43,384 nt of DNA from a virus (taxonomy: Duplodnaviria > Heunggongvirae > Uroviricota > Caudoviricetes), in the IMG/VR virus record IMGVR_UViG_2925908680_000005, positions 1 through 43,384 of that record, one strand, 5' to 3'. Below, one piece after another: positions 1 to 43,384 of the stretch (position 1 is the first letter of the stretch; each line of letters opens with the position of its first letter). The notes under the pieces were generated by a model. That model saw only the letters and a list, made by a program, of their open reading frames with translations, was not told the origin of the DNA and ran no database searches. The position numbers and the translations under genes are program-made.

Positions 1-1866
1 TCACGTAGTACCCAATATAGTCGTACCATCTATGGTTTCGACTCCCGCCGGGGCCAATAATTGCTGTATCCAGCCAATAGCATGCCCTCGCTCAACGCAC
101 TGGGAGAAAAACGCACGCTGCTTTGCTCTGGTAAAGGCAACAAAAAAAGTGTTTAGCTCTTCACCCCGTTGCGGCGTAAGGCTCCACCAAGTCTGATTGT
201 CGAGCCCATAAAATATCATCGTATGGAACTCAAGACCTTTGCTTTTATGGACGGTCATCAGAGCTACCTGGCCAATACCTTCGAACTCATCCAGCGCCTC
301 CGTCCAGCTGCTGCTGTGTTCTGCACACTCTTTCAGGAGAGTGACAAATCCACTCCACACCCTCTCAAAATCTCTTGCACGCTGGTAAGCGGGAAAGGAT
401 TGCCGAAGCCTAGGGGTCCCGACAAATTCAAGAAGCATCTCTGCAATCTCTTCCGCCGAATCCGGACTAGGCTGGCGATGCGCTAGCTCTGTCCTTAATT
501 TACGGACGAATGCTTCAAGCTTAACCAGCAATCGTTCCTGCGTGAGATCGTTATCCGGATCGGCAGCCTCCAAAAACAGATAGTTCTGCTGGGTCTGCTC
601 CCAGTTTTCCGGGCTTCGCTCCGTCGCTCCCAGGCGGAGTAAAGGAACAAATATACCGGTCAGCTCTTCACCAAGCAGATCCTGTATCTGAATTTCACCG
701 ACTGACCGGGCCGCATTTCTGATCCTGAGACCTCGTGCCGCAAAAGAGGGGGCTATTTCACCCTCAACCTGATCTGCCCGCATTCTGATCAGAATCGCTA
801 CATCATGTGGTGCAACACGCTCTGACTGAACCTCACGGCTCACCCATTCAGCCAGATAATTGTTCTCGTCATCTGCGCTCCGGAATTGCCAGATAGCAGA
901 AACCTCACCTTCGATTTCACGGGTCCCTTGTGCCTGCACTTCTTCCACATTATCGTCTATCCGGCGGGCAATCTCGTGCTGAATACGAACCAGATCCACA
1001 TGTGACCGCCAGTTAGAAAGCAGTGTTATGCGTCTGGCAGCAAAGTCGTTTTCAAACTGGTCAAAGGCGTCATTCATGGCTCCCGCCCATCCCATGATAC
1101 GCTGCTTATCATCGCCGACTGCCGTAAAGACAGCATCGCTACCATCGAATGCCGTTAGCAGCATGTCATACTGGGCATAGGTGGTGTCCTGGTATTCATC
1201 AAGAAAGACGATGGGATATGTTGCCTGTAAGGCCCGGCGGATATATGAATTTTCCTGAAGCAGCAGTTTTACAAGCCTGTTTATCATCGGGAAGGACAGG
1301 GATATCTCGTCGCCCCCGAAGAATTGTTCATGCCAGTAATCTGCTAACGCACGATGTACTTCAGATCCATTTGACAAGTCAATTGGCAGGTCTGTCAGAA
1401 GCAGTCTTCTCTCAAGCTGTTGAGCACTCACTCCGTGATAGCCATGTCGCTCAATAAAATCGTCATAATCCCTACGAAACGGATTAACAATCTGATACGT
1501 ACCGGGCGCATTGAACGGCTCAGGTAAAGCCGGACGAAACCGGTCCAGAAGCCCCTTGGTAAAGGCATCAAAAGTCATCGAATCAAAGCGCCGCGCCTGA
1601 TCTCTCGGGCAACGCTTTGCAACCCTTTCGGCGAGGTTTTGGGCGGCATCTTTTTTAAAGCTGATGGCCAGAATACGTTTGGGTGCCGGACAAATACCTG
1701 TCTGCAGAAGATAGGTCGCCTTCTGTGCCAGAAACTCAGTTTTTCCGGCACCGGCACCAGCGGTCACAAGGATGCTGCTATCGGTTTCACGTAAAGCCTC
1801 CCACGCTCTCCCTTCCAGACCACCGACACCCTGAGGTACCCAGTCGTCTCTGCTTACGCGGGTCAT
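1..1866 (-). CDS. UvrD/PcrA-like superfamily-1 DNA helicase (GajB-like partner of an OLD-family nuclease)
   Basis: 621-aa ORF ending at a stop codon at the window edge; helicase motifs visible in translation: AGAGAGKT (Walker A), DEYQDT (motif II), VGDDKQRI, TVHKSKGLEF, VAFTRAK; start overlaps upstream gene stop by 4 nt. Confidence 0.8.
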   Translation of the reverse strand: MTRVSRDDWVPQGVGGLEGRAWEALRETDSSILVTAGAGAGKTEFLAQKATYLLQTGICPAPKRILAISFKKDAAQNLAERVAKRCPRDQARRFDSMTFDAFTKGLLDRFRPALPEPFNAPGTYQIVNPFRRDYDDFIERHGYHGVSAQQLERRLLLTDLPIDLSNGSEVHRALADYWHEQFFGGDEISLSFPMINRLVKLLLQENSYIRRALQATYPIVFLDEYQDTTYAQYDMLLTAFDGSDAVFTAVGDDKQRIMGWAGAMNDAFDQFENDFAARRITLLSNWRSHVDLVRIQHEIARRIDDNVEEVQAQGTREIEGEVSAIWQFRSADDENNYLAEWVSREVQSERVAPHDVAILIRMRADQVEGEIAPSFAARGLRIRNAARSVGEIQIQDLLGEELTGIFVPLLRLGATERSPENWEQTQQNYLFLEAADPDNDLTQERLLVKLEAFVRKLRTELAHRQPSPDSAEEIAEMLLEFVGTPRLRQSFPAYQRARDFERVWSGFVTLLKECAEHSSSWTEALDEFEGIGQVALMTVHKSKGLEFHTMIFYGLDNQTWWSLTPQRGEELNTFFVAFTRAKQRAFFSQCVERGHAIGWIQQLLAPAGVETIDGTTILGTT

Positions 1867-3824
1867 TCATTCTCTCCTGACAGATTAAGCTTATCCGTAA
1901 CGTACTCAATGAGCGCCCTGAGCTCTACAGGAGCGGACGCAGTAACACCGCCGCCCGCGATACGGGAAAAAGCCGCAAGGTGAGTTTCGGGCTTACTGCG
2001 GCTCAGGAACAGATACGGATACCATTTGAAAGCGTCATCATAATGCGCGGTATACAAGGCAGGATTACCACCTGTTTTCAGCGTACTGACCTTTTTGGCT
2101 TGAATAGCAGCAGCACTACTCTGGGGTCCATTGCCACCTGGATTGGCAACCTGATAAGCGGTTGGAAAGGCGAGCAACATGGCAAAATCGAGATCAATGG
2201 GATAGGAAAAGAAAACTCCTTCCCTCCTGAATGCTTGAAGCCATTGACCTTGCAGGCCTTCATTATAAAGCTGTTGGTCGGTAAGCTGAGCAGCATTAGC
2301 ACCATTGGTGCTCCCCAAATTACTCCCGATAGCGGCCAAATTCTGAAGGCAGCTTCTCATGGCATTCGCCCCACCATGTCGGCGCCCCAGATCAAGATCG
2401 AGCAAAGTGGCATGTGGAATCTCAAGATCATTCAGCAGCCGCCAGAAATGCGCTACGAACCGTCCACCGAGCGGAACGACGGGAACGAATGATGGATCAA
2501 GGGAAACACCCATCTCTTCCGCAATTTTCGGAATAACTACTCGCTCTGAGTCTCCCTCACCCAGGATTACAAATCGCGCAAAATAAAGTTCGGGGTATGC
2601 CTTTACAGCCAGCCTGACATAAACGCTTGCCTCAACATCATCTTCAGGCAGGGTCAGTTCTCGGATCGATGAGCACCGAGCGCTCCGGTCCATACGAAAA
2701 TATCTCACTTCCTCCGGCTCTATCCGGCTCAGGATAGATGGGGAATGGCTAGATAGCAGAACCTGCGCGGAAGGCAGTGCGCCAATCTCTCTCGCCTGCT
2801 TGATGATGCGAGATAAAAAGAACGGTGACAGGCTGTTTTCTGGTTCTTCGATGGCAAGAATCGTCAGGTGAATACGGCGTAACTTATCCTGTTCAAATGA
2901 GCTGTCATCAGCAGGCAAAGAAAATGCTTCCCGCTCGGTTTCGAGCGTTGCCGCTGTAAGAGCGATATGGAACAGAGAGCGCTGACCGTCACTCAGCTCG
3001 GACAAACGACGCTCCTGACCTTCTTCATCAGGCGTAAAAGTAAATTCGGCTTTACGAACAAGCTCCTCAAAACGGTTCTCGATGAGCCTTAAACGCGGTT
3101 TACTGTCTGTATCGGCCTCATGGACCTGTTGCCAACGCTTCGAAAGACGCTCCAGCAGAAACTTCGACGGCTCCTCTTCCTCGAAACTGCTCTGGATCTG
3201 ACCGGCATTAACATAGCTTGCATCCCTAAATGCCGTCGACCATTTGGCAGCCTGCCATAACCGCCCTTTTAGAAGGGCGGTCACTTGAGTCGTCGCATCA
3301 CGATTTGCCGGTAAGTAAATAAACTGGATTGAAGAGCGCTCTACAGCCTGAACCCTGGAACAGTCATCCCATTCAAAATTATCATCCAGGGCTCTTATCC
3401 AGCGTATATCCTCCTCAATTGCTCCCTCCGGCGTACCGTCATCCGTCCATGTTGCTTGTAGTCGTATCCGGGCCTTAAGGGGCTCTCCCTCACCGGAAGC
3501 CGCCATCTGATTAAAGAACTCCGGAACGGCATCAAGAGGAGAAGCGTCTTGCTCTTCCAGTTCAGGGAAGGCAAGTACCGCTTCGACAAACAGACTGTCG
3601 CCAGACTGCAGCTCCTGCCGGTCAATAGGTATGTGAAAATCTCGACGCTGTACCGATCGCTGCGCTGATGTTGTACCAAACAACCTGGACACAGCTTGCA
3701 GCACTGCCGTCTTTCCGGAGCCGTTTCCGCCGACAAGTATTGTCAGTTCTTCCTCAAAATTTAGCTCGACCACCTCATGCCCGAAACAACGAAAATTCTG
3801 TAGCTTTATCTTCTCTATTTTCAT
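1863..3824 (-). CDS. OLD-family ABC ATPase with C-terminal TOPRIM nuclease domain (GajA-like / class 2 OLD)
   Basis: 653-aa ORF; N-terminus MKIEKIKLQNFRCF with Walker A GGNGSGKT; C-terminal TOPRIM-like glutamate (ILGEGDSE) and DxD (LLDLDLG); translationally coupled to the downstream helicase. Confidence 0.8.
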   Translation of the reverse strand: MKIEKIKLQNFRCFGHEVVELNFEEELTILVGGNGSGKTAVLQAVSRLFGTTSAQRSVQRRDFHIPIDRQELQSGDSLFVEAVLAFPELEEQDASPLDAVPEFFNQMAASGEGEPLKARIRLQATWTDDGTPEGAIEEDIRWIRALDDNFEWDDCSRVQAVERSSIQFIYLPANRDATTQVTALLKGRLWQAAKWSTAFRDASYVNAGQIQSSFEEEEPSKFLLERLSKRWQQVHEADTDSKPRLRLIENRFEELVRKAEFTFTPDEEGQERRLSELSDGQRSLFHIALTAATLETEREAFSLPADDSSFEQDKLRRIHLTILAIEEPENSLSPFFLSRIIKQAREIGALPSAQVLLSSHSPSILSRIEPEEVRYFRMDRSARCSSIRELTLPEDDVEASVYVRLAVKAYPELYFARFVILGEGDSERVVIPKIAEEMGVSLDPSFVPVVPLGGRFVAHFWRLLNDLEIPHATLLDLDLGRRHGGANAMRSCLQNLAAIGSNLGSTNGANAAQLTDQQLYNEGLQGQWLQAFRREGVFFSYPIDLDFAMLLAFPTAYQVANPGGNGPQSSAAAIQAKKVSTLKTGGNPALYTAHYDDAFKWYPYLFLSRSKPETHLAAFSRIAGGGVTASAPVELRALIEYVTDKLNLSGENE

Positions 3825-3872
3825 TCCTGATTACCTTTTTGTAAGAGATGCCTTTAAAAGTTAGCGAGCCCC

Positions 3873-5108
3873 CTAAATAACCCACTCATCAATCATATCA
3901 GCCCAGTCCTGCAACATAGATGTACGCTGATCACGATACTCGGCTTTGTTATATATCGCCCTCACACCTTTTTGCTCATGTGCCAGGCATTTCTCTATCC
4001 AATCGGTGTTGTAACCGGCTTCATGGAGTAAGGTACTTGCTGTACGCCTCAGATCGTGGGGTCCAAACTTGGCAAGGGACTGCCCTTCTTTCTGAGCCAG
4101 CTTGTAAGTCATCGTCATCACCCGGTTTAGCGTGGCACTGCTCATGGGCACGTCAGAATCGTAACGCGACGGCAGAACATAATCCGATCCACCGGAGAAC
4201 GTCTTCAAAGCGATGAGAATGTCCATGGCCTGCCTGGATAGAAACACCAGGTGAGGATTTCGCCGCTTCATCCTTTCTTTAGGGATCGTCCAGAGCGCTT
4301 CGCTGAAGTTGATCTCACTCCAGGTAGCATTCGTCAGCTCGCTTTTTCGCACCATCGTCAACAACAACAGTTTTACCGCTGCGCGGATCGATGGTGATGT
4401 ACCAATACGCCCCATGTACTGATACATGATCCTAATTTCTTCGGGCGTCAGGGTTCGATCTCTCGGCTCAAACCTGGCAATGCTTGCTGGCCGCACCAGG
4501 TCTGCTGGGTTCTCAACCTTCTGGCCTCGCTCAGTGGCCCAGCGGTATACCTGGAGTACAATCTCACGCGCATGAACCGCCGTAGCAGGCGCACCGCGCT
4601 CTACGATGGCGTCGGTAAGTGCTCGCAAGTCCTCGTGGGTGATTTCGGTCAGCTTCTGATTGCCGAATTTCGTTTCCAGCTCTCTCGTATAAACCGAGCG
4701 GCGCATATCACGGGTAGAGTCGGCCATCTGGTAGCCACGTAGCCACTTTTCCGCCCAGGCACCAAAGGTTTCAGCCCCTTTTACACGCGCCTTGTCCCGT
4801 GCCTTCTCCTTCGCTGGCGACTTTCCATCAGCGACCATCCGCTTGGCTTCACTAAGTCGCTCACGGGCTTCTGCCAGAGTGATACCCCCAACGCCATAGC
4901 GGCCAAAGGTGATTGTCTCTTGCCTGCCATTGATCGAGTAGTTGTAACGGAATGAGATAGAGCCGGCAGGAGTGACAGCCACATAGAGGCCATCCCGGTC
5001 ATTCACCTTGTAGAGTTTATCCCTCGGCTTGAGGTTGCGCAGCTTGGTATCGGTCAGCAAGAGTCTTATCCTTCTTCGATTCCAATACCATGCTGGAAGA
5101 TTACCCAA
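3873..5108 (-). CDS. int: tyrosine site-specific integrase (P4/CP4-57-like, DUF4102-type N-terminus)
   Basis: 411-aa ORF; N-terminal LTDTKLRNLKP...GLYVAV arm-binding-type domain; C-terminal catalytic region HDLRRTAST...AHE...Y typical of tyrosine recombinases. Confidence 0.9.
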   Translation of the reverse strand: MGNLPAWYWNRRRIRLLLTDTKLRNLKPRDKLYKVNDRDGLYVAVTPAGSISFRYNYSINGRQETITFGRYGVGGITLAEARERLSEAKRMVADGKSPAKEKARDKARVKGAETFGAWAEKWLRGYQMADSTRDMRRSVYTRELETKFGNQKLTEITHEDLRALTDAIVERGAPATAVHAREIVLQVYRWATERGQKVENPADLVRPASIARFEPRDRTLTPEEIRIMYQYMGRIGTSPSIRAAVKLLLLTMVRKSELTNATWSEINFSEALWTIPKERMKRRNPHLVFLSRQAMDILIALKTFSGGSDYVLPSRYDSDVPMSSATLNRVMTMTYKLAQKEGQSLAKFGPHDLRRTASTLLHEAGYNTDWIEKCLAHEQKGVRAIYNKAEYRDQRTSMLQDWADMIDEWVI

Positions 5109-5153
5109 AAATCGAGCAATAAAACCAATAAAAACAGATAGTTAAATAATTTC

Positions 5154-5242
5154 GATACCATGAACACACAGGATCAAGCAGCATGGTATCGGCTATCACT
5201 CATGGCATCATGTCTCGATAATACCACCTTGGATACCATGCT
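5154..5242. repeat. three copies of GATACCATG (two direct at 5154-5162 and 5234-5242, one inverted at 5182-5190) upstream of int; candidate integrase or regulatory binding sites
   Basis: read directly in the int upstream intergenic region. Confidence 0.4.
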
Positions 5243-5290
5243 CAAGCGGTGCTTCCCGCTGCCATCAGTTGCCAAATAATGCCAGACATA

Positions 5291-5320
5291 AAAACAAAAA
5301 AGCCCATCAAAACATGGGCT
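5291..5320 (-). terminator. intrinsic terminator ending the late (lysis) operon before int
   Basis: stem AGCCCAT/ATGGGCT with 6-nt loop, followed on the minus strand by a U-run (plus-strand AAAACAAAAA). Confidence 0.6.
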
Positions 5321-5492
5321 TGAGTGTAATTTAATGCCAGTTTGTACCAGCTAATGCCTAACGTGTGATCATTCCACTCAATTATTTACGACAACCATAA
5401 CCAATTGAGTGATAACATTTTTCCAAAACTTCATCTTTCTCATACCGTTTTATATACCGTCACCGGAAATCAGTACCATGAAAAATGCCATG

Positions 5493-6884: not shown

Positions 6885-7284
6885 CGTCTTTTCTCCCCGG
6901 GATCAGGTCACGCGGATTTTCAGAACGGTGATACAGCCAGATGCCAATGCGGACAGCGACGATAGCCGACACGAACGCCCCGGCAGAAAACACAATCCCC
7001 TTTTCAAATGAGTCCTGCGTAATCGTAGGGATCATGCTGGCAATACCGATAAGAATGGATGCTGTCGCCTTATAAAAGAGAAGGCCGCAGAAGAAGCTGA
7101 GAAACGCCAGAAGTAACCGCCTCTTTATGGGATACTCCACCGCCGAGGTAACAAAAATTACCGCACCAGCAAGCGCCCCTAAAGCCACCTCCGGCGGCAC
7201 ACCCGCGACCACAGACATTAGCGCGCTCAGGCTAAGCCCCTGATTCAGCGATTCCGTGGTTAACGAGTGCGACATAGTGACCAC
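6871..7284 (-). CDS. holin-like membrane protein
   Basis: 137 aa with several hydrophobic helices; first gene of lysis cassette. Confidence 0.45.
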   Translation of the reverse strand: MVTMSHSLTTESLNQGLSLSALMSVVAGVPPEVALGALAGAVIFVTSAVEYPIKRRLLLAFLSFFCGLLFYKATASILIGIASMIPTITQDSFEKGIVFSAGAFVSAIVAVRIGIWLYHRSENPRDLIPGRKDDDQS

Positions 7285-7380
7285 CGTTTAATGTGCATAA
7301 AGAACCCCCTTAGTTGATGAGCTCATCATACACAATAAACCATATGTGGATTGACTTTGATCGGATAACCATTAACGAAA

Positions 7381-7395
7381 TTACCTTTTGGGTGA
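7381..7395. promoter_or_regulatory. imperfect copy of the TTACC-N5-GGTAA palindrome (TTACC TTTTG GGTGA) about 30 bp upstream of the acyltransferase start
   Basis: read directly. Confidence 0.35.
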
Positions 7396-7424
7396 TATAC
7401 TAATGGCAAATCAATGAGTAATAT

Positions 7425-8540
7425 ATGGACATCCTTTCAATGATAAAGAATGAATTAAAATCAATCCAAATTCTTAGAGGTTTGGCGGCACTTATGGTCG
7501 TTCTATACCACTTTAGGACCGTTCTTAATTATGATAATGTCAGGATGGGTGATTATCTTTTTGGTAAGGGGTTTATTGGTGTTGATTTATTTTTCGTAAT
7601 TAGTGGATTCATAATGGCTTACACGACCAACTTGACTCATGACGCTATTGCCGATGTAAAATCATTTGCAATTAAAAGGGTTAGTAGAATATATCCTGTT
7701 CTTTTTACTTCATTTATTATTGCGTCTTTATCATTCATGAATTTTGAAAGGGTATTATCACAGTCTTTTTTTGAAACACTAAGCAGCCTTGCCTTGATTC
7801 CTACAACAAGTTCTTTGCCGCCATTTTTTATAGATACACATTCAATACTTGGTGTTAGGTGGACTTTAAATTATGAGGTATATTTCTATTCTATTTTTGC
7901 GATATCTTTATTTTTTGGAAAGAGAAGGTATTATGTTCTACTGGCATGGATTATTATGACAGTATTTTTTACTCAAATACTAATTAATGGATCATTCAGT
8001 GCCAAGGCTGTAAGCCCTAGATTTGAAAGTCCATGGTTGTCAATGATTACAAACTCTATCGTTCTTGATTTTGCAATTGGCGTTATTGTAGCAATGGCAA
8101 TTGAGGCGGGAATAATAATAAATAGAAGATTATCAATTGCCTCTTTGGTTTTTGTTGCTTATGTTTCAATGAACCAGATAGCTGTAGTAAAGGGTCACGG
8201 ACTCTCAGAGTTTGGAATGTACGCAGCAATAATTGTTTATTTATGTGTTTGCCTTGAAAAAAATGGATTTAGTTTTAATTCGCCAGCGCTAGAGCATTTG
8301 GGTAATATTTCTTATTCTTTATACCTATTGCATCTGTCGGTAAGTACATTCATCGGAATAATAGTTACAAATCTCGGAGTTAGGGAATACTTTTCAAATG
8401 GCATTTATATGGTAACACTTGTAGCCATTAGTATAATGTCAGCACACATCTCGTATAAGTATATTGAGTTATCGCTATCGAGGAGGGTAAGAGGATGGAT
8501 GATGATAAAATCTGGCATCCTTGCCAAAAATAAAAATTAA
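7425..8540 (+). CDS. acyltransferase family 3 membrane protein (O-antigen acetyltransferase-like; likely lysogenic conversion gene)
   Basis: 371 aa, multi-pass membrane protein with family-3 N-terminus (RGLAALMVVLYHF...GVDLFFVISGF); strongly AT-rich relative to flanks; opposite strand to surrounding late genes. Confidence 0.8.
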   Translation: MDILSMIKNELKSIQILRGLAALMVVLYHFRTVLNYDNVRMGDYLFGKGFIGVDLFFVISGFIMAYTTNLTHDAIADVKSFAIKRVSRIYPVLFTSFIIASLSFMNFERVLSQSFFETLSSLALIPTTSSLPPFFIDTHSILGVRWTLNYEVYFYSIFAISLFFGKRRYYVLLAWIIMTVFFTQILINGSFSAKAVSPRFESPWLSMITNSIVLDFAIGVIVAMAIEAGIIINRRLSIASLVFVAYVSMNQIAVVKGHGLSEFGMYAAIIVYLCVCLEKNGFSFNSPALEHLGNISYSLYLLHLSVSTFIGIIVTNLGVREYFSNGIYMVTLVAISIMSAHISYKYIELSLSRRVRGWMMIKSGILAKNKN

Positions 8541-8541
8541 T

Positions 8542-30543: not shown

Positions 30544-30620
30544 GTGGCATTAGCTCAGTTGGACAGAGCAACCGCCTTCTAAGCGGTTGGTCGCAGGTTC
30601 GAATCCTGCATGCCACGCCA
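30544..30620 (+). tRNA. tRNA-Arg (anticodon UCU), phage-encoded
   Basis: cloverleaf folded by hand: 7-bp acceptor GTGGCAT/ATGCCAC, D-arm GCTC-AGTTGGACA-GAGC, anticodon stem ACCGC/GCGGT with loop CTTCTAA, T-arm GCAGG-TTCGAAT-CCTGC, discriminator G, encoded CCA. Confidence 0.85.
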
Positions 30621-37274: not shown

Positions 37275-38143
37275 GCTTCAGGGCTGTTCCAGTGCGGAAC
37301 GTTGTTATCAGGTAATGTTGATTGCTTCTGTCTGCTAATCTGCAGCCGCCTTGCCAGCTTCTGCTCCCACTGTGCCTGATGGTATGCCTTACCCTCAGCC
37401 ATCCAGTAAATTCTGAACTCTGCAAGTTCCTGTGCCGTTGGCAGACTGTCCAGGTAGATCCCCTGCAATGAGCTTTTCCGAAGAAAGTCATCTGATGGCT
37501 GCCATTGTTCATGCATGACAAATTTTCCTAATTGCCCTGGCCCACCAGGAGGAACAAAGTTATTCATCACGGCGTTGTTTGCGCCGGGGTCATGAGGCAC
37601 AGAATCCCCGGTTTTTGTCCTGCTCTCCCTCTCTTGGTTAAATGACTGGTTATATGACTGGTTCTGGATCCCGTTTTTGGGATCATTCAACATCCCGTTT
37701 TTGGGATCATTCAACATCCCGTTTTTGGGATCATTCAACATCCCGTTTTTGGGATCATTCAACATCCCGTTTTTGGGATCATTCAACATCCCGTTTTTGG
37801 GTATATTCCCGTTTTCGGTAACATTACCGTTTTCGGGTTCATTACCCCCTTCCCGGTTGCCTTTAATGTTCCCGTTTTTGGTTATATTAAGAGAGAAAAC
37901 CCGCACTCTTTTCGTCGCTCCCTTTCTCTCTCCGGTATCTGAAATAAGCCCCATTTTCATGAGCGATATAAGCCCGGCCTGCACGGTTTTTTTATTCAAG
38001 CAAGTGTCTTTAACGAGGCGTTCTATGCTGGGGTAGCAGAGGTTATATTCATCGGCTCTGTCAGCCATCGAGAGCAGTATGAGCTTTAATGATGAGCTGC
38101 CTGGATCTGTCTCCCAGGCCCAATCTGTTGCATGTCTGCTCAT
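37256..38143 (-). CDS. replication initiator O-like protein with in-gene iterons
   Basis: 295 aa; N-terminal winged-HTH-like domain; central GMLNDPKN x5 peptide repeat encoded by tandem 24-bp DNA repeats. Confidence 0.7.
   Translation of the reverse strand: MSRHATDWAWETDPGSSSLKLILLSMADRADEYNLCYPSIERLVKDTCLNKKTVQAGLISLMKMGLISDTGERKGATKRVRVFSLNITKNGNIKGNREGGNEPENGNVTENGNIPKNGMLNDPKNGMLNDPKNGMLNDPKNGMLNDPKNGMLNDPKNGIQNQSYNQSFNQERESRTKTGDSVPHDPGANNAVMNNFVPPGGPGQLGKFVMHEQWQPSDDFLRKSSLQGIYLDSLPTAQELAEFRIYWMAEGKAYHQAQWEQKLARRLQISRQKQSTLPDNNVPHWNSPEAWEDFL
37666..37881. repeat. iteron array (candidate origin of replication): five perfect tandem 24-bp repeats (37681-37800) flanked by degenerate 14-25-bp copies
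   Basis: unit GATCATTCAACATCCCGTTTTTGG repeated head-to-tail five times; degenerate CCGTTTT(C/T)GG-containing copies on both sides. Confidence 0.7.
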
Positions 38144-38158
38144 GATTAATCTCCGCTA

Positions 38159-38359
38159 TCAGCTTGAATGTTGTGGGGAGGAATTAATCATGATCTGCTT
38201 AATCTCTGCCCTGATGCGACGGTTTGATTCCATGGTGCACTCAACACAGTGTCCGTTGTAAACCCAGCGCTCACTGTCATGTCCGTGCTTACATGGTTTT
38301 CCGGTGTAGTAGCGTTTAAGTCCGCGCTTTGCGGCATCAATACGTGTAATGATTTCCAT
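38159..38359 (-). CDS. small zinc-ribbon protein in the cII position
   Basis: 66 aa from the MEIITR methionine; CKHGH...CVEC. Confidence 0.35.
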   Translation of the reverse strand: MEIITRIDAAKRGLKRYYTGKPCKHGHDSERWVYNGHCVECTMESNRRIRAEIKQIMINSSPQHSS

Positions 38360-38420
38360 GGTAAGCCCTGTTATTAGTATTGGGATTACGGTTATTTTGT
38401 GCTGACACAAAAAAAAGATC

Positions 38421-38454
38421 AACCAAATTTGGTTTTTTATTACCTTTAAGGTGC
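38421..38454 (-). promoter_or_regulatory. 14-bp perfect palindrome AACCAAATTTGGTT with adjacent T-run (tR1-like position) plus imperfect operator copy TTACC TTTAA GGTGC (38440-38454)
   Basis: read directly between cro-like and cII-position genes. Confidence 0.35.
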
Positions 38455-38509
38455 GAATAGATATGAAAAGACCGCCGGATGGCGGCCTACAGAGGGTTGT
38501 GGCTGGATA

Positions 38510-38740
38510 TCATGAGTAGAAGAAGTATGCCAGTTCTGCTTTTGAGCGCAGCCATTGTCTTGTTTTACAGGCTTTAAAAAGCCCATTCATCAATACCTTA
38601 CCTGGCATTTTGCGCTTACCTGTTAAGTGAGTCTGGATATAGTGACTCGTCGTTCCGGCTTCCTGTGCGAAGGCTTCACGCTCATCCGGAGTAAGTGCAA
38701 GCCAGTGCTTTTTGAAATCGAAATGTCCGTTATCGCTCAT
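38510..38740 (-). CDS. Cro-like small DNA-binding regulator
   Basis: 76 aa, divergent from repressor gene. Confidence 0.5.
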   Translation of the reverse strand: MSDNGHFDFKKHWLALTPDEREAFAQEAGTTSHYIQTHLTGKRKMPGKVLMNGLFKACKTRQWLRSKAELAYFFYS

Positions 38741-38776
38741 AGCTATTGCCTGATATTTATTTCAGATAATAAATAT

Positions 38777-38839
38777 TCACCCATAAGGTAACAAAAATCA
38801 AGGATAGTTACCTATGGGGTGCATTTACCTGTTGGGTAA
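38777..38839. promoter_or_regulatory. tripartite operator region between cro-like and repressor genes: TCACC CATAA GGTAA (38777-38791), TTACC TATGG GGTGC (38808-38822), TTACC TGTTG GGTAA (38825-38839)
   Basis: read directly; one perfect and two one-or-two-mismatch copies in 63 bp. Confidence 0.6.
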
Positions 38840-38894
38840 TATTGCTTTAAATTGAATCATCTACTGATTCATATATGAGGCGATTTTCCAGAAA

Positions 38895-39479
38895 ATGAAA
38901 AGTATCCAGGACGTCCGCAGGCAAAATCTCAACGACTTGATCGACCGTGAATTCAATGGTGTTCAGACGCGGATGGCAGAAAAACTTGGAACTCAGGCAA
39001 ATCTGGTAAACCGCTGGGCTCTTGGCAAGAAGGTTATCGGCGACCAGGTTGCGCGAAAAATTGAAGCTGCCGCCAATAAACCCCGTAACTGGCTTGATAT
39101 CGATCGCTCGCTTTCTCAAGAAGGTTTTCAGCCTGTCGGACCAAGCGACATTGGTCAGCTGGCGGCTCACAACCTGGAACGCTGGATGAGCGAAAGCCGA
39201 GACCTTTCAACGCAGGGAAAACTTCACCGCGCATCCGGCGTCGCCCAGGTGACAATCAGCCGCCTGTTAAACAATGAGGTCAGCGTTTCCATTTCCACCC
39301 TGGAGAATGTTGCATCCGCATTCGGGCGTCACGGCTATGAATTACTGATTCACCCGCACGACCCTGCGACTATCAACTATGATCGCTCGCGCTACGCATT
39401 GTTACCTGAAACAGAGAAGGCAAAGATCGAAAGTTACATTGAATTTGTCATCAACCAGAACGAAAAAAGCAAACAATAA
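38895..39479 (+). CDS. immunity repressor-like protein with two HTH domains and no recognisable LexA-type autocleavage domain
   Basis: 194 aa; two XRE-type HTH-like segments; no Ala-Gly/Ser-Lys peptidase motif seen. Confidence 0.6.
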   Translation: MKSIQDVRRQNLNDLIDREFNGVQTRMAEKLGTQANLVNRWALGKKVIGDQVARKIEAAANKPRNWLDIDRSLSQEGFQPVGPSDIGQLAAHNLERWMSESRDLSTQGKLHRASGVAQVTISRLLNNEVSVSISTLENVASAFGRHGYELLIHPHDPATINYDRSRYALLPETEKAKIESYIEFVINQNEKSKQ

Positions 39480-39500
39480 AACTATAGTTTTCAGAAAGTA

Positions 39501-39525
39501 AGCCGCCTCATGGCGGCTTTTTTAT
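39501..39525 (+). terminator. intrinsic terminator after repressor gene
   Basis: AGCCGCC-TCAT-GGCGGCT stem followed by TTTTTTA. Confidence 0.75.
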
Positions 39526-39536
39526 TGCCCATGAAA

Positions 39537-39613
39537 TTACCTTACGGGTAATTTTTTTAACTCATATCTATTGACAACAAACCAAATACGCATAATTATT
39601 ACCTCAACGGTAA
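39537..39613 (+). promoter_or_regulatory. PL-like early promoter (TTGACA 39571-39576, 16-bp spacer, ATAATT 39593-39598) bracketed by two perfect operator palindromes (39537-39551 and 39599-39613)
   Basis: read directly. Confidence 0.6.
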
Positions 39614-39632
39614 CAAGCCGAGGTAACAAGTT

Positions 39633-39785
39633 ATGCAGTGGAAAATCATCAACGGTTGGTACTGCGTTACTGCATGCGGATTCATGAGCTGGAAGTTCCG
39701 CACATTACAGGAAGGCATTAAGTGGGCTTTCGTCAGCAAAGAAGCTCGCGATGTGGCCAACGATAACGAGATATGGGAGGGCTGA
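39633..39785 (+). CDS. small Trp/Cys-rich protein, first gene of the rightward early operon (below the ORF-track size cutoff)
   Basis: 50-codon ORF MQWKIINGWYCVTACGFMSWKFRTLQEGIKWAFVSKEARDVANDNEIWEG found by hand translation. Confidence 0.35.
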   Translation: MQWKIINGWYCVTACGFMSWKFRTLQEGIKWAFVSKEARDVANDNEIWEG

Positions 39786-39787
39786 TA

Positions 39788-40087
39788 ATGAACGTTAATC
39801 AGCAGAAAAATCTTCAAAAAATCATGCTGGCATTCGACAAGGACTACCGCCTGTCAGAACAGCTATATGACCGACAAGTTGAACTGATTGAGAGCATCCG
39901 ACTTCATCAACTGTCCTCAACTTTCGACGTTGTAACAGGCAAAGGCGTTCGTCAGGAAGTGCTGGAGGCAGCTAAAGACAGCCCTGAGTTCGAAGAACTT
40001 ATGGATGCCTACCGGCGCGAGGCAATGGCAATTATCGCCCGCTGGGATCTGGCTGATCAGCTTGATGGGCAGAGGGACGCGGCATGA
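39788..40087 (+). CDS. hypothetical early protein
   Basis: 99 aa from the MNVNQQ methionine with GGGAGGG ribosome-binding site; stop overlaps next start. Confidence 0.45.
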   Translation: MNVNQQKNLQKIMLAFDKDYRLSEQLYDRQVELIESIRLHQLSSTFDVVTGKGVRQEVLEAAKDSPEFEELMDAYRREAMAIIARWDLADQLDGQRDAA

Positions 40088-40905
40088 AGCCGGGAATTTA
40101 TTTCGACATCAGCAACGAAGACTACCACGCCGGTGACGGCGTGAGTAAGTCGCAACTGGACATGGTTGCCAAGAATCCGGCGCTTCTCAAATGGGTTCAG
40201 GCAGCACCAGAAGACGAAGAGAAAAAGTCTGCACTGGATATGGGAACCGCATTGCACTGTCTGCTTCTGGAACCTGGAGAATTCGACAAACGCTTCATCG
40301 TTTCACCGAAATTCGATCGTCGGACAAAACAAGGTAAAGCTGACGAAGAAGCATTTCTTCGTGATGTGGCGGATATGGGTATTACGGTACTTGATGTCGA
40401 GCAGTGGCGAAAACTGGAGCTGATGCGTGATAGCGCAATGGCTCATCCGGCGGCACGCTGGATGCTGGAAGCACCTGGTTACTGCGAAGCATCAATGTAC
40501 TGGAACGATGAAGATACGGGTGAGTTGTGCCGAATTCGTCCAGACAAATGGCTGAACGAGCACAACGTGATCGTCGACGTGAAAAAGGTTGCAGATATGG
40601 ACCGTTTTGCACGCCACATCGAGGAATTCCGCTACCACGTGCAGGACGCAATGTACCGCGAAGGTGCAATGAGGGTTACTGGTCAGCCGCATGGTTTTTT
40701 CTTTCTTGCCGTGAGCGAAAGCATTGATTGTGGTCGGTATCCGGTACGCGTGTTCGAGCTGGATGCGCAGGATGTCGATGCCGGGCACGCTCTGTTCCGC
40801 CGGGATCTGAATACCTATCACGAATGCCGCATCAATGATGAATGGGGTGGTGTGGAAATCATTAAACGCCCTGAGTGGGCACGCAAACAGGATATGTACA
40901 TATGA
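40084..40905 (+). CDS. PD-(D/E)XK exonuclease (RecE-like nuclease domain)
   Basis: 273 aa; nuclease-like pattern (IRPD...IVDVKK); translationally coupled to annealase. Confidence 0.6.
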   Translation: MKPGIYFDISNEDYHAGDGVSKSQLDMVAKNPALLKWVQAAPEDEEKKSALDMGTALHCLLLEPGEFDKRFIVSPKFDRRTKQGKADEEAFLRDVADMGITVLDVEQWRKLELMRDSAMAHPAARWMLEAPGYCEASMYWNDEDTGELCRIRPDKWLNEHNVIVDVKKVADMDRFARHIEEFRYHVQDAMYREGAMRVTGQPHGFFFLAVSESIDCGRYPVRVFELDAQDVDAGHALFRRDLNTYHECRINDEWGGVEIIKRPEWARKQDMYI

Positions 40906-41843
40906 GCAACGACATCGCAAACATCAACGCACCAGTAGACACAGCAATCGCTGGAACTGCTGCAACTATTTTCAGCCCAGACGGCTTGAACCAACTGATG
41001 AAATTCGCCGAGGTAATGGCGCAAAGCCGCGTAACGGTACCGGCGCACCTCGCTGGGAAACCAGCTGATTGCATGGCCGTGGCAATGCAGGCTGCGCAGT
41101 GGGGAATGAACCCGTTTGCCGTGGCTCAGAAAACCCATGTTGTGAACGGCACGCTAGGTTATGAAGCCCAATTAGTAAACGCAGTTATCTCAACAATGTC
41201 GCCAACAAAAGATCGCATCAACTACGAGTGGTTCGGGCCGTGGGAACGCGTGATCGGTAAGTTTGTTGAGAAAACATCCAAAAACGGCAATCCGTATATC
41301 GCACCAGGCTGGACTCTAAAAGACGAAGAAGGTTGCGGTGTTCGCGTATGGGCAACCATGAAGGGCGAGGATCAACCTCGAGTGCTTGAGTTAATGCTGT
41401 CTCAAGCACAGGTAAGAAACTCCACACTTTGGGCCAGTGATCCGAAACAACAACTCGCATACCTTGCAACAAAACGCTGGTCTCGCTTGCACTGTCCTGA
41501 CGTAATCATGGGCGTCTACACACCAGACGAATTACAGGAAACGGCACCGCGCGTTGAGCGAGACATTACTCCGCAAACGACCACTGCTGCGGGAATGAAC
41601 AGTCTGATTAACGCTAAACAAGTGAAAAATCCTGATGAGCAAACGCGTAAAGCGGATAGCCGTGATCCAGAAGAAATGCTAATGGCCTTTACCAGCGCAG
41701 CGATGAATTACAGCACTGTCTCCGAACTGGATAAAGCTTACAAATACATTGCACAAAAACTTTCAGATGATGACGAACTGCTGGCAAAAGCCACCGACGT
41801 TTACAGCGTTCGTCGGGAAGAATTAAACGAAACATCTATGTAA
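40902..41843 (+). CDS. RecT/Red-beta family single-strand annealing protein
   Basis: about 313 aa from the MSNDIANIN methionine; C-terminal region (WASDPKQQLAYLATKRW...ERDITPQ) resembles lambda Bet as recalled from memory. Confidence 0.6.
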   Translation: MSNDIANINAPVDTAIAGTAATIFSPDGLNQLMKFAEVMAQSRVTVPAHLAGKPADCMAVAMQAAQWGMNPFAVAQKTHVVNGTLGYEAQLVNAVISTMSPTKDRINYEWFGPWERVIGKFVEKTSKNGNPYIAPGWTLKDEEGCGVRVWATMKGEDQPRVLELMLSQAQVRNSTLWASDPKQQLAYLATKRWSRLHCPDVIMGVYTPDELQETAPRVERDITPQTTTAAGMNSLINAKQVKNPDEQTRKADSRDPEEMLMAFTSAAMNYSTVSELDKAYKYIAQKLSDDDELLAKATDVYSVRREELNETSM

Positions 41844-41892
41844 CCACCACCGCGGCGCCACACGCGCCGCACTGCAACCAAGAGAGGTATTT

Positions 41893-42141
41893 ATGAAAGG
41901 TGCATTAGGTAAGAAGGAACTCCTGGCGGTGGTGCCACTGTCATGGAGCACTATCGACCGTATGGAGCGCGCAGGGGAATTTCCTAAACGCTGGTATATC
42001 ACCGATAAACGCTGCGCATGGAACCGCGATGAAGTTGAGCGTTGGCTTGATGAACGTCAGGCAGCAAGCCCGGCAGAGTTCCAGGGTAAAAAACCTCCTG
42101 TTCAGCAACGTGTATATCGTCCTGTGAGCAACGCGGCATGA
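41893..42141 (+). CDS. AlpA-family DNA-binding protein (excisionase-like regulator)
   Basis: 82 aa with AlpA-like HTH (LLAVVPLSWSTIDRMERAGEFPKRW...ERW). Confidence 0.6.
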   Translation: MKGALGKKELLAVVPLSWSTIDRMERAGEFPKRWYITDKRCAWNRDEVERWLDERQAASPAEFQGKKPPVQQRVYRPVSNAA

Positions 42142-42250
42142 GTGTGCTGCTAAGGCACTGGAGCAAATGGTCAGGATGGTACTTATTCCTGGCCTCTGTT
42201 TCAGCATGGCTTTATCTGCTGGCATTAATTTTCAGAGAGGGTTGGATTAA

Positions 42251-42550
42251 GTGAGAAAGTTAAGCCGACTTGAAAAATATCACATGAACAAGGTTTCAAT
42301 GCGCAGCCATTCAAAGGTTGTTGCCGTTACTCCTGCGGCGATAGAGATCGAAAAACGCGCGATTGAAAGAGAGAAAAAAGGGCAGTTCCGCATTGCCGCT
42401 CACCTTTGGCTTCAGTGTATGGATGTTGCTTCTGGTGATGTTGAGCGTGCAAGGATCGCGGTTCGCAGGGACCAATGTATCACAAAAGGTAACGGCCTTC
42501 GCCGTGGCGACTATAGCGGCATAGGATGTTGTGGGGTGGTTTATGACTAA
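42251..42550 (+). CDS. PerC/ANR-like small regulator (putative)
   Basis: 99 aa (GTG start, or about 88 aa from the ATG at 42284); central A.E.E..G.F..AA.LW motif. Confidence 0.35.
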   Translation: MRKLSRLEKYHMNKVSMRSHSKVVAVTPAAIEIEKRAIEREKKGQFRIAAHLWLQCMDVASGDVERARIAVRRDQCITKGNGLRRGDYSGIGCCGVVYD

Positions 42551-43193
42551 GAAATACACACTAATCTATGCAGATCCACCCTGGGTATACCGGGACAAAG
42601 CCGCAGATGGTAATCGCGGTGCCGGTTTTAAATATCCGGTTATGAGTGTGCTGGATATCTGCCGCCTTCCTGTGTGGGATTTGGCCGATGAAAACTGTCT
42701 GTTGGCCATGTGGTGGGTGCCAACACAACCACTCGAAGCGCTAAAAGTTGTTGAAGCCTGGGGATTCCGTCTGATGACCATGAAGGGCTTCACGTGGATA
42801 AAATGTGGTAGTCGACAACCAGATAAACTGGTTATGGGTATGGGACACATGACTCGCGCCAATAGTGAAGATTGCCTGTTTGCAGTAAAGGGAAAACTAC
42901 CTCCGCGCATTAATGCAGGGATCGTTCAGTCATTTACCGCACCGCGGCTTGAGCATTCAAGAAAACCAGATGTCGTTCGTGAAAAACTTGTGCAATTGTT
43001 AGGCGATGTTTCTCGCATTGAACTGTTCGCCCGCCAGACGTCTCATGGCTTCGATGTTTGGGGTAATCAGTGCGAAGACCCGGCAGTGCAACTACACCCT
43101 GGATACGCGTTGGATATTGGCGGATTAACAAATGCATTCAGCAATGCTCCGCTGTCACCAACAGACAACCAGGGGCGGGAGCGTGCAGCATGA
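42543..43193 (+). CDS. MT-A70 family DNA N6-adenine methyltransferase
   Basis: about 216 aa from the MTKKYTLIYADPPW methionine; DPPW catalytic motif. Confidence 0.75.
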   Translation: MTKKYTLIYADPPWVYRDKAADGNRGAGFKYPVMSVLDICRLPVWDLADENCLLAMWWVPTQPLEALKVVEAWGFRLMTMKGFTWIKCGSRQPDKLVMGMGHMTRANSEDCLFAVKGKLPPRINAGIVQSFTAPRLEHSRKPDVVREKLVQLLGDVSRIELFARQTSHGFDVWGNQCEDPAVQLHPGYALDIGGLTNAFSNAPLSPTDNQGRERAA

Positions 43194-43384
43194 ACAGGGC
43201 ATCACCAGCAGATTTAAGGAAATGCCTTGAAACTGCAAACATGCTTGCACACAGCGGGATCAGGTTTGTTCCAGTTCCCGCTGTCACTGATGCTGAATTT
43301 GCAACGCTGTCAGCAATATTCGCAGACAAAATTGAATCACTGGCAGCAGAAGCCGAGATGGAAGAAAATCAGCAGAATAATTAA
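43190..43384 (+). CDS. hypothetical small protein
   Basis: 64 aa from the MNRASPADL methionine; stop codon is the last triplet of the window. Confidence 0.4.
   Translation: MNRASPADLRKCLETANMLAHSGIRFVPVPAVTDAEFATLSAIFADKIESLAAEAEMEENQQNN

Follow-up and report, generated by a model that had tools for sequence, protein, structure and literature searches.

What kind of operon closes a 43,384-nucleotide stretch of Caudoviricetes DNA (IMG/VR record IMGVR_UViG_2925908680_000005, positions 1 to 43,384; hereafter the window), and what does its methyltransferase act on? Between positions 40084 and 43193 the window carries plus-strand genes for an exonuclease, a RecT-family annealase, an AlpA-like protein, a PerC/ANR-like protein and an MT-A70 adenine methyltransferase. 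The question of most weight is whether the substrate of this partner-less MT-A70 enzyme is DNA or ribosomal RNA (rRNA). As to the locus itself, these are very probably early-left (PL-type) operon genes of an integrated podovirus of the phiV10/epsilon15 kind, belonging to the genus Uetakevirus; our confidence extends to what the operon is and how it works as a whole, and excludes the substrate of the methyltransferase.

Identity and control of the operon

The 3.7 kb from position 39700 to the window end share 98% DNA identity with phiV10, the O157 typing phages 9 and 10, EC.W1-9 and YDC107_2, 95% with vB_EcoP_ZX5 and phiv142-3, and about 80% with Enterobacter and Salmonella members of Uetakevirus. 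The same stretch was found in 566 of 5426 complete Escherichia coli genomes, nearly always as a single chromosomal copy, with a P4-type integrase gene and then guaA coming after it; the E. coli integration site of the prophage is the guaA 3' end. The phiV10 record (NC_007804) labels the genes as RecE/RecT, AlpA family, membrane protein, PerC-family transcriptional activator, adenine methylase and DUF1382, and the NCBI annotation pipeline PGAP gives identical names in identical order in E. coli PF9285, ahead of int and guaA. Because the phiV10 record has carried these annotations for years, there is nothing new in the operon: its content is already known, and the reading made from the letters of the window (the sequence-only reading) re-derived the existing annotation of a common E. 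coli prophage family. As it stands, the finding matters little. The literature on the phiV10 methyltransferase, on epsilon15 operators and on PerC proteins in Uetakeviruses yielded nothing specific.

The operon is longer than the 40084-43193 interval first proposed and runs from about 39571 to 43384, with nine consecutive plus-strand open reading frames (ORFs) at 39633-43384. It opens with a 50-residue ORF (39633-39785) that has no family match and is homologous to phiV10 p39 and epsilon15 gp37, followed by a 99-residue ORF (39788-40087; phrog_856 at 1.9e-55) whose stop overlaps the exonuclease start by 4 nt. Next come the RecE-type PD-(D/E)XK exonuclease (40084-40905, 273 residues; PF12684 at 5.9e-22) and the RecT annealase (40902-41843, 313 residues; PF03837 at 3e-44, phrog_561 at 4e-147). 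An AlpA-family winged-helix protein (41893-42141, 82 residues; PF05930, phrog_66 at 2e-16, PDB 8c3t at 1.8e-11) precedes a predicted membrane protein of 38 residues (42138-42254; phrog_17484 at 4.7e-27, phiV10 p35), which is joined to its neighbours by ATGA and GTGA overlaps. The PerC/ANR-like small helical protein (42251-42550, 99 residues from a GTG start; PF06069 at 5.6e-7, phrog_868 at 1.8e-61) has a stop that is overlapped by 8 nt by the start of the MT-A70 methyltransferase gene (42543-43193, 216 residues, class beta with DPPW; PF05063 at 6.1e-22, phrog_359 at 1.8e-120). The last gene in the window, ATGA-coupled to that of the methyltransferase, encodes a 64-residue DUF1382 protein (43190-43384; PF07131 at 8e-30). 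From 39788 to 43384 all junctions are overlaps of either 4 nt (ATGA/GTGA) or 8 nt (ATGACTAA), the sole exception being the 49 nt that separate recT from the AlpA-like gene.

The five genes named by the sequence-only reading lie exactly where it had placed them, and all five domains score above the curated cut-offs by which Pfam matches were judged, with PHROG in agreement. Its claim of an early operon is upheld by a promoter-like site behind the terminator of the repressor gene and by operator-like palindromes on both sides of that promoter, but the four small genes at 39633-39785, 39788-40087, 42138-42254 and 43190-43384 had been missed.

Outside the operon, at 38895-39479 on the plus strand, lies a prophage repressor gene whose product has two helix-turn-helix (HTH) motifs (Pfam HTH_3 at 1.2e-9 and a YdaS-type HTH; phrog_8, transcriptional regulator). 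It is a homologue of phiV10 p40 and epsilon15 gp38 and the probable controller of the operon. The repressor transcript ends at an intrinsic-terminator-like hairpin with a T-run (39500-39519, plus strand), and a terminator is annotated at the equivalent place in phiV10. Downstream of it is a sigma-70-like early-left promoter (39571-39599, plus strand) with TTGACA and AATTAT separated by 17 nt, matching 10 of 12 consensus positions. Only two promoter-like sites were detected in 38400-43384, this one being the best of the region, and none was found inside the operon. The promoter is bracketed by two operator-like palindromes, TTACCTTACGGGTAA (39537-39551), located 5' of the -35 hexamer, and TTACCTCAACGGTAA (39599-39613), which abuts the -10 hexamer and the likely transcription start; both have an equivalent site in phiV10.

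These two palindromes belong to a larger set. If one mismatch at most is allowed, the window has 13 copies of the 15-bp palindrome TTACC-N5-GGTAA where 0.56 would be expected, an excess of about 20-fold, and a count of 13 was reached by none of 100 shuffles. The sites, at 7381, 7553, 10974, 11354, 30207, 33005, 33023, 36360, 36422, 38777, 38825, 39537 and 39599, are often paired and mostly located in or near gaps between long ORFs; those at 38777 and 38825 fall between the divergent repressor and Cro-like genes. In phiV10 the palindromes are found at matching intergenic positions with different 5-bp spacers. Because the sites are kept at corresponding positions despite differing spacers, the half-sites appear to be under selection, and TTACC-N5-GGTAA is probably the repressor operator throughout the genus, serving many transcription units.

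Phage ZX5, which is 95% identical and also inserts at the 3' end of guaA, has a repressor (ORF21) that shuts down lytic transcription when overexpressed (PMC9782041). In a lysogen of the window's prophage, the two-HTH repressor would bind the palindromes bracketing the promoter at 39571-39599 and keep the operon off, so that the operon is probably silent in lysogens. After derepression a single transcript would run from about 39600 to at least 43384, and the overlapping ORFs would be translated in a coupled way. Weighing against this account, the promoter and the operators were recognised solely by their match to a consensus, the repressor is the presumed rather than the demonstrated palindrome-binding protein, and no experimental test of this operon in any Uetakevirus was found in the literature.

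The sole real intergenic gap of the operon holds a GC-rich 7-bp stem-loop without a U-tract (41852-41870, plus strand), just 5' of the ribosome-binding site of the AlpA-like gene. Its fold energy is -17.3 kcal/mol (z = -2.2). The stem-loop is conserved in Tyrion and WGI31CT, and in Salmonella phage SPC32N the stem is kept through one compensatory change, from C-G to U-A. Its possible functions are RNA processing, control of RNA stability and attenuation; an Rfam scan of 38000-43384 returned zero RNA families.

The recombination pair and the AlpA-like protein

Judged by its sequence, the exonuclease is the predicted nuclease domain of RecE alone. It scores 79 bits against Pfam DUF3799 (PF12684, PDDEXK-like; cut-off 26), matches the crystal-structure chain of the RecE nuclease domain (PDB 3H4R) at E = 1.5e-77 over residues 12-268, and aligns at 48% identity with the C-terminal 273 residues of Rac RecE. 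In the alignment to RecE, for which we assume the residue numbering on the RecE side, the catalytic residues are kept and correctly spaced: H58 (GTALH), D154 (RPD), and D165 and K167 (DVK). The Pfam match, the 3H4R match and the catalytic residues thus agree on the PD-(D/E)XK exonuclease that had been proposed. Full-length RecE it is not, as the equivalog model (NCBIfam NF007259, 877 positions) is matched at positions 606-873 only, with 309 bits against a cut-off of 1269 bits.

The annealase scores 151.4 bits against PF03837 (cut-off 24) over model positions 2-188 of 198, and the RecT ATG overlaps the exonuclease stop (ATGA, 40902-40905), as expected of the Bet/RecT annealase translationally coupled to the exonuclease that the sequence-only reading described. 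Orthology to the RecT of Rac (K-12) was not found, there being no significant BLASTP alignment between the two; the protein belongs to another RecT subgroup, called 'enterohemolysin 1' in some records.

The pairing of two genes is kept in Tyrion, in EC.W1-9 and in PGAP-annotated prophages, and in SPC32N an HNH endonuclease gene is inserted between them. In phiV10 and O157 typing phage 9 the sequence reads CGCAAAACAGG where the window and most prophages have CGCAAACAGG (window 40880-40890; phiV10 L001:5186; typing phage 9 L012). The extra A, seventeen codons before the exonuclease stop, fuses exonuclease and RecT into a single ORF of 586 residues. Since it is present in two separately deposited records, the fusion is probably a real variant and not a sequencing error. 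By strong homology, the RecE domain and RecT would resect double-strand ends in the 5'-3' direction and anneal the exposed strand, and the pair may serve phage recombination, late replication and mosaic gene exchange. The compact pair represents a minimal recombineering module that occurs naturally in a wild E. coli phage.

For the AlpA-like protein an excisionase-type regulator had been suggested, and all three family assignments match this description: Phage_AlpA (PF05930) at 24.2 bits with a cut-off of 21, phrog_66, which is named 'excisionase and transcriptional regulator', and PDB 8c3t, an 'AlpA family phage regulatory protein'. In phiV10, PF9285, WGI31CT, Tyrion, SPC32N and a Salmonella prophage, the AlpA-like gene is followed at a distance of 1-2.5 kb by a P4-type int, and no other xis-like gene was found in the Uetakevirus loci examined, all of which have a P4-type integrase. 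From this arrangement, the protein probably controls excision or gives the P4-type integrase its directionality, and most likely it would direct or activate excision by the neighbouring enzyme.

A more doubtful, though possible, role is that of a transcription factor for the phage programme, either an int activator or an antiterminator, instead of a DNA-bending excisionase. What speaks against excision as the function is that the AlpA family also holds transcription activators and antiterminators: AlpA of CP4-57 activates the integrase gene, and AlpA of Pseudomonas aeruginosa is an antiterminator that binds RNA polymerase. The label of the best PDB match is moreover limited to 'phage regulatory protein', and the island-type integrase in the window is only 54% identical to that of phiV10, a figure with no bearing on the prophage's own integrase beyond the window. 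Yet the loci examined offer no alternative xis candidate to which excision could be assigned, the PHROG family carries excisionase in its name, and the excision and transcription roles are not mutually exclusive. We keep excision control, whether by DNA bending or by activation of int, as the preferred reading.

The methyltransferase and the PerC-like protein

The methyltransferase matches MT-A70 (PF05063) over the whole model (positions 1-172 of 172) with 78.8 bits at a cut-off of 23.9, carries the catalytic motif IV DPPW at residues 11-14, and has ciliate MTA1 and human METTL3 as its nearest solved structures. PADLOC assigned MTase_II to it at 3e-77 and made zero assignments for the exonuclease, the AlpA-like protein and the PerC-like protein. 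It is an orphan, as had been stated: its neighbours are the PerC-like and DUF1382 genes, int is next in relatives, and no restriction gene is adjacent. A tblastn search found homologues in 517 phage records, among them more than 100 phages converting for Shiga toxin (Stx) 2a at 83-84% identity over residues 1-187; the methyltransferase of the Salmonella relatives shows 77% protein identity. In Hafnia, Klebsiella and other E. coli phages, homologues lie in different modules with different upstream genes, and on these comparisons the gene appears to behave as a mobile single gene. Methyltransferases of this type are present in about one tenth of complete E. coli genomes, and their Stx-phage relatives come with two conflicting published activities.

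Both activities concern close relatives. The enzymes of the Stx phages P13803 and 06-3462 are 83% identical to that of the window over residues 1-187, and their loci can be tied to the phiPA8 constructs of Gong, Chakraborty and Koudelka (2023, PMC10810198) by gene position, the DPPW stretch, the PNB-2 gene (P13803) and primer mapping. In that work, M.EcoPA8orf6770P alone showed weak, non-specific activity, whereas with the upstream-gene product PNB-2 it formed a 1:1 complex that preferred 16S rRNA; the enzyme also raised spontaneous induction and virulence (PMC10810198). According to the discussion of the same paper, M.EcoGV, which is highly similar to M.EcoPA8orf6770P, methylates GATC in vivo when overproduced, and Table 3 of Forde et al. 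gives the specificity of M.EcoGV as GATC (PMC6602927).

On balance we lean, with due caution, towards a stand-alone DNA N6-adenine methyltransferase of the M.EcoGV type, specific for GATC and methylating replicating phage DNA. The enzyme would be made early in lytic growth. Several points stand against this assignment. GATC as the target comes from an overproduced, 83%-identical enzyme and by way of a secondary citation; M.EcoPA8orf6770P by itself was nearly inactive and non-specific in vitro (PMC10810198); and the last 29 or so residues of the window and Stx-phage enzymes are unrelated, the alignment stopping at residue 187. The observed/expected ratio of GATC in the phage is 0.76, like that of other palindromes and 4-mers, and GATC frequency was dropped as an uninformative clue to the target. 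Methylation sequencing of lysogen DNA, the check put forward originally, would likewise be uninformative because the operon is probably repressed and the host Dam already methylates GATC. Non-specific phage methyltransferases of the Hia5/Hin1523 type were considered as relatives and ruled out, as they are Dam-related enzymes with DPPY and not MT-A70 proteins (PMC3299994). The anti-restriction or epigenetic factor of the sequence-only reading is generic and has partly been overtaken by the GATC DNA and 16S rRNA reports on relatives.

The alternative is that the enzyme is mainly a 16S rRNA methyltransferase that tunes translation and the frequency of prophage induction, with no part in DNA modification or restriction evasion. 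We consider it unlikely, although the 83% identity to the Stx-phage enzyme extends over the catalytic core, the nearest solved structures are of eukaryotic MT-A70 enzymes (MTA1 and METTL3), and the order MT-A70 then DUF1382 is common to both phage groups. The holoenzyme of M.EcoPA8orf6770P and PNB-2 favoured RNA over DNA more than 13-fold with 16S rRNA preferred, and a DPPW-to-APPA mutant of M.EcoPA8orf6770P lost the induction and virulence phenotype (PMC10810198). That preference, however, depended on PNB-2, a protein without a homologue in the window; variants that lack PNB-2 end in a different C-terminus, and the modified rRNA base was never mapped (PMC10810198). In vivo, overproduced M.EcoGV gives sequence-specific methylation of GATC, as cited in PMC10810198 and tabulated in PMC6602927. 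Finally, the gene in the window lies in a repressed early operon and has no terminator or promoter of its own, unlike the gp6-gp5 unit of the Stx phage.

The position of PNB-2 was taken from the primers of Gong et al. 2023, which were mapped to L006:2573-2590 (P13803) and L007:3781-3799 (06-3462) and place it at the ORF starting at L006:2573 in P13803, where the start is a TTG 75 nt 5' of the annotated ORF08. The 'PNB-2 + methyltransferase' construct extends as far as the DUF1382 stop, where its reverse primer ends, and therefore includes the DUF1382 ORF as well, a point that the paper does not discuss. Searching the whole window by tblastn with PNB-2-type proteins gave no significant homologue, and the PerC-like protein, with zero similarity to P13803 ORF08 (PNB-2), was ruled out as one. 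Nor does the window enzyme have the STEC-type (Shiga toxin-producing E. coli) C-terminal residues, about 27 in number, since the tails are unrelated past residue 187; this tail was proposed to be required for PNB-2 binding (PMC10810198). The DUF1382 proteins of the window and the Stx phages are 47% identical, and by gene order DUF1382 seems to travel with this methyltransferase in the Stx phages too.

The label 'PerC/ANR-like' for the gene preceding that of the methyltransferase proved apt. The protein scores 30.2 bits against Pfam PerC (PF06069; cut-off 22.6), with residues 35-80 only aligned to model positions 5-50 of 90, and it matches NCBIfam ANR_neg_reg (NF033650) with 23.6 bits (E = 3.4e-5), below the cut-off of 32 bits and thus outside that family. 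Three starts can be considered, GTG 42251, ATG 42284 and ATG 42299, of which the first is favoured because the SPC32N and Tyrion proteins are conserved with it from residue 3 onwards. The protein is 70-79% identical in Salmonella and Enterobacter Uetakevirus phages, and no relatives of it were found among solved structures. As a PerC/ANR-type protein it might modulate a transcription factor by protein-protein contact in early lytic growth.

The candidate regulator of host genes of the sequence-only reading is not favoured for lysogens, given the repressed operon and the ZX5 lysogens described below. This proposal makes the protein a lysogenic-conversion factor that reprograms host genes, as PerC and Pch act on ler and the locus of enterocyte effacement (LEE) in enteropathogenic (EPEC) and enterohaemorrhagic E. 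coli (EHEC), respectively. Prophage-borne PerC homologues (Pch) do activate LEE1, and the protein is a member of Pfam PerC, but the proposal is improbable. The gene lies deep in an operon whose sole detectable promoter is bracketed by operator-like sites, and because of this position its expression in lysogens is unlikely. It is conserved in phages of Salmonella and Enterobacter, hosts without LEE, and the PerC model is matched by residues 35-80 and no others. ZX5 lysogens showed no altered host phenotypes: growth, biofilm, stress response, adhesion, invasion and virulence were all unchanged (PMC9782041), in the only phenotype study of a 95%-identical phage that was found. Overall, the gene identifications and the early operon of the sequence-only reading were borne out, whereas the functions it proposed for the last two genes are generic and in part superseded by published work.

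Less probable still is that the PerC/ANR-like protein acts in PNB-2's place as a specificity or stabilising subunit of the MT-A70 enzyme and not as a transcription regulator. The 8-nt overlap of the PerC-like stop and the methyltransferase start implies coupled translation, MT-A70 enzymes are often heteromers (PMC10810198, PMC7544214), and two rare public sequences, P0003 (297 residues) and P0001 (263 residues), fuse both ORFs in frame. The fusions can be explained, however, by single-base or short deletions in a few assemblies: P0003 fits the loss of one T in GGTTTATGAC, and P0001 has an internal deletion. The PerC-like protein and PNB-2 are without sequence similarity. Within the genus, one or two unrelated genes part the PerC-like and methyltransferase genes in Tyrion, SPC32N and the Salmonella prophage; Tyrion, with its genes separated, nevertheless retains the window-type C-terminal tail of the methyltransferase. 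Elsewhere, methyltransferase homologues occur without any PerC neighbour, and comparison inside and outside the genus rules out the PerC-like gene as an obligate neighbour.

The interval between the two genes is a variable slot in the genus. It is empty in the E. coli phages of the phiV10 type and holds a 59-residue protein and a 75-residue winged-helix-like protein (gp31 and gp30) in Tyrion (L009:3108-3511). The SPN1S-type Salmonella phages have there a 52-residue ORF (032) and a DndB-like protein of 355 residues with a DGQHR motif (SPC32N, L008:2282-3504), and the Salmonella prophage has a DUF1317 protein (L024:2825-3004). The combined proposal, that the phiV10-type MT-A70 enzyme is an rRNA adenine methyltransferase altering translation at induction with the PerC/ANR-like or DUF1382 protein as its specificity subunit, is highly improbable; were it true, the 'PerC-like regulators' of many prophages would be methyltransferase adaptors and not transcription factors.

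Neighbouring elements and known systems

The window is probably not a complete phage, its left 5.4 kb deriving from a neighbouring integrative and conjugative element (ICE) that carries a Gabija system. On the minus strand this part encodes GajB (1-1866), GajA (1863-3824) and a P4-type integrase (3873-5108) with an attachment (att) arm beside it. Positions 1-5382 match, at 99.9-100% identity, the end of a conjugative element that is integrated at guaA and has Trb genes and a RepA helicase in five E. coli genomes, including 203740 and A_5, and this stretch was found in no phage record. At 5367-5382 lies a hybrid att site made up of the int-side arm of the ICE, a core of about 15 bp, ATCATTCCACTCAAT, with one C fewer than the published guaA core, and the Rz-side arm of phiV10. 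From 5368 on, the sequence begins with this phiV10 Rz-side arm, and 5368-43384 is collinear with phiV10 from 26735 round to 28181 in the layout of an integrated prophage, lacking only int. Because the window stops exactly at the DUF1382 stop codon (43384), the prophage int and guaA should adjoin its right end. The same tandem, a conjugative element followed by a Uetakevirus prophage, is present in strain MS8345. A circular phage with Gabija between DUF1382 and int was considered less likely, the DUF1382-GajB junction being found in no complete E. coli genome; an apparent 13-nt extension at that junction is a BLAST artefact. The Gabija system is thus not to be credited to the phage.

Several other features of the window were observed. 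An insertion of the IS3 family (IS2-like) at about 11905-13227, with orfB (11916-12821) and orfA (12779-13189) on the minus strand, is not in phiV10 and interrupts the Bro-N antirepressor gene (phiV10 p23). In ZX5 the antirepressor promotes the lytic switch, and because the IS2-like element disrupts this gene, the prophage may be poorly inducible. A tRNA-Arg gene (anticodon TCT; 30544-30620, plus strand) separates the portal-side from the terminase-side ORFs and is oriented opposite to the structural genes; ZX5 is reported with one tRNA as well. The block at 7000-11000 has a GC content of 38-43% as compared with about 50% elsewhere and includes a gene resembling Acyl_transf_3 O-antigen acyltransferases (7425-8540, plus strand) and, at the tailspike position, a 775-residue ORF without a Pfam match (8542-10869, minus strand). 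That only part of this block can be aligned to phiV10 suggests a swapped serotype-conversion and receptor-binding module.

Among known systems, the Stx-phage locus of M.EcoPA8orf6770P and PNB-2 shares with the window the DPPW motif, a place at the integrase-proximal end of the early-left region, a methyltransferase start that overlaps a small upstream gene, and DUF1382 as the next gene. In the window, however, the upstream gene is PerC-like and not PNB-2, and no terminator or promoter precedes the PerC-like/methyltransferase pair. With PerC of EPEC, Pch of EHEC and ANR (Aar), the PerC-like protein shares the helical core at residues 35-80, but only about half of the PerC model is matched, and the gene is part of a lytic early operon in phages that have Salmonella and Enterobacter among their hosts. 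As in Rac, the exonuclease gene directly precedes and overlaps a RecT-family gene, whereas the window has the nuclease domain only, of about 270 residues, and a RecT without BLASTP similarity to that of Rac.

The closest counterpart is the early-left region of phiV10 (p39-p32) and epsilon15 (gp37-gp28), which has the same gene order, in phiV10 at 98% DNA identity, and continues with the P4-type integrase gene, whereas the window ends before it. More distantly, the operon resembles the PL operon and exo-xis region of lambda, laid out as gam-bet-exo ... xis-int: both are leftward early operons under repressor control that combine an exonuclease/annealase pair with small accessory ORFs and with an excision function beside int. 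DUF1382 proteins occur in lambdoid phages, and the gene is present in the Stx-phage locus. Homologues of gam, N and cIII were not detected. Where lambda has Red-alpha and Red-beta, the operon in the window has RecE/RecT recombinases; its excision candidate is of the AlpA type and its integrase of the P4 type, and the repressor gene lies upstream in the same orientation as the operon.

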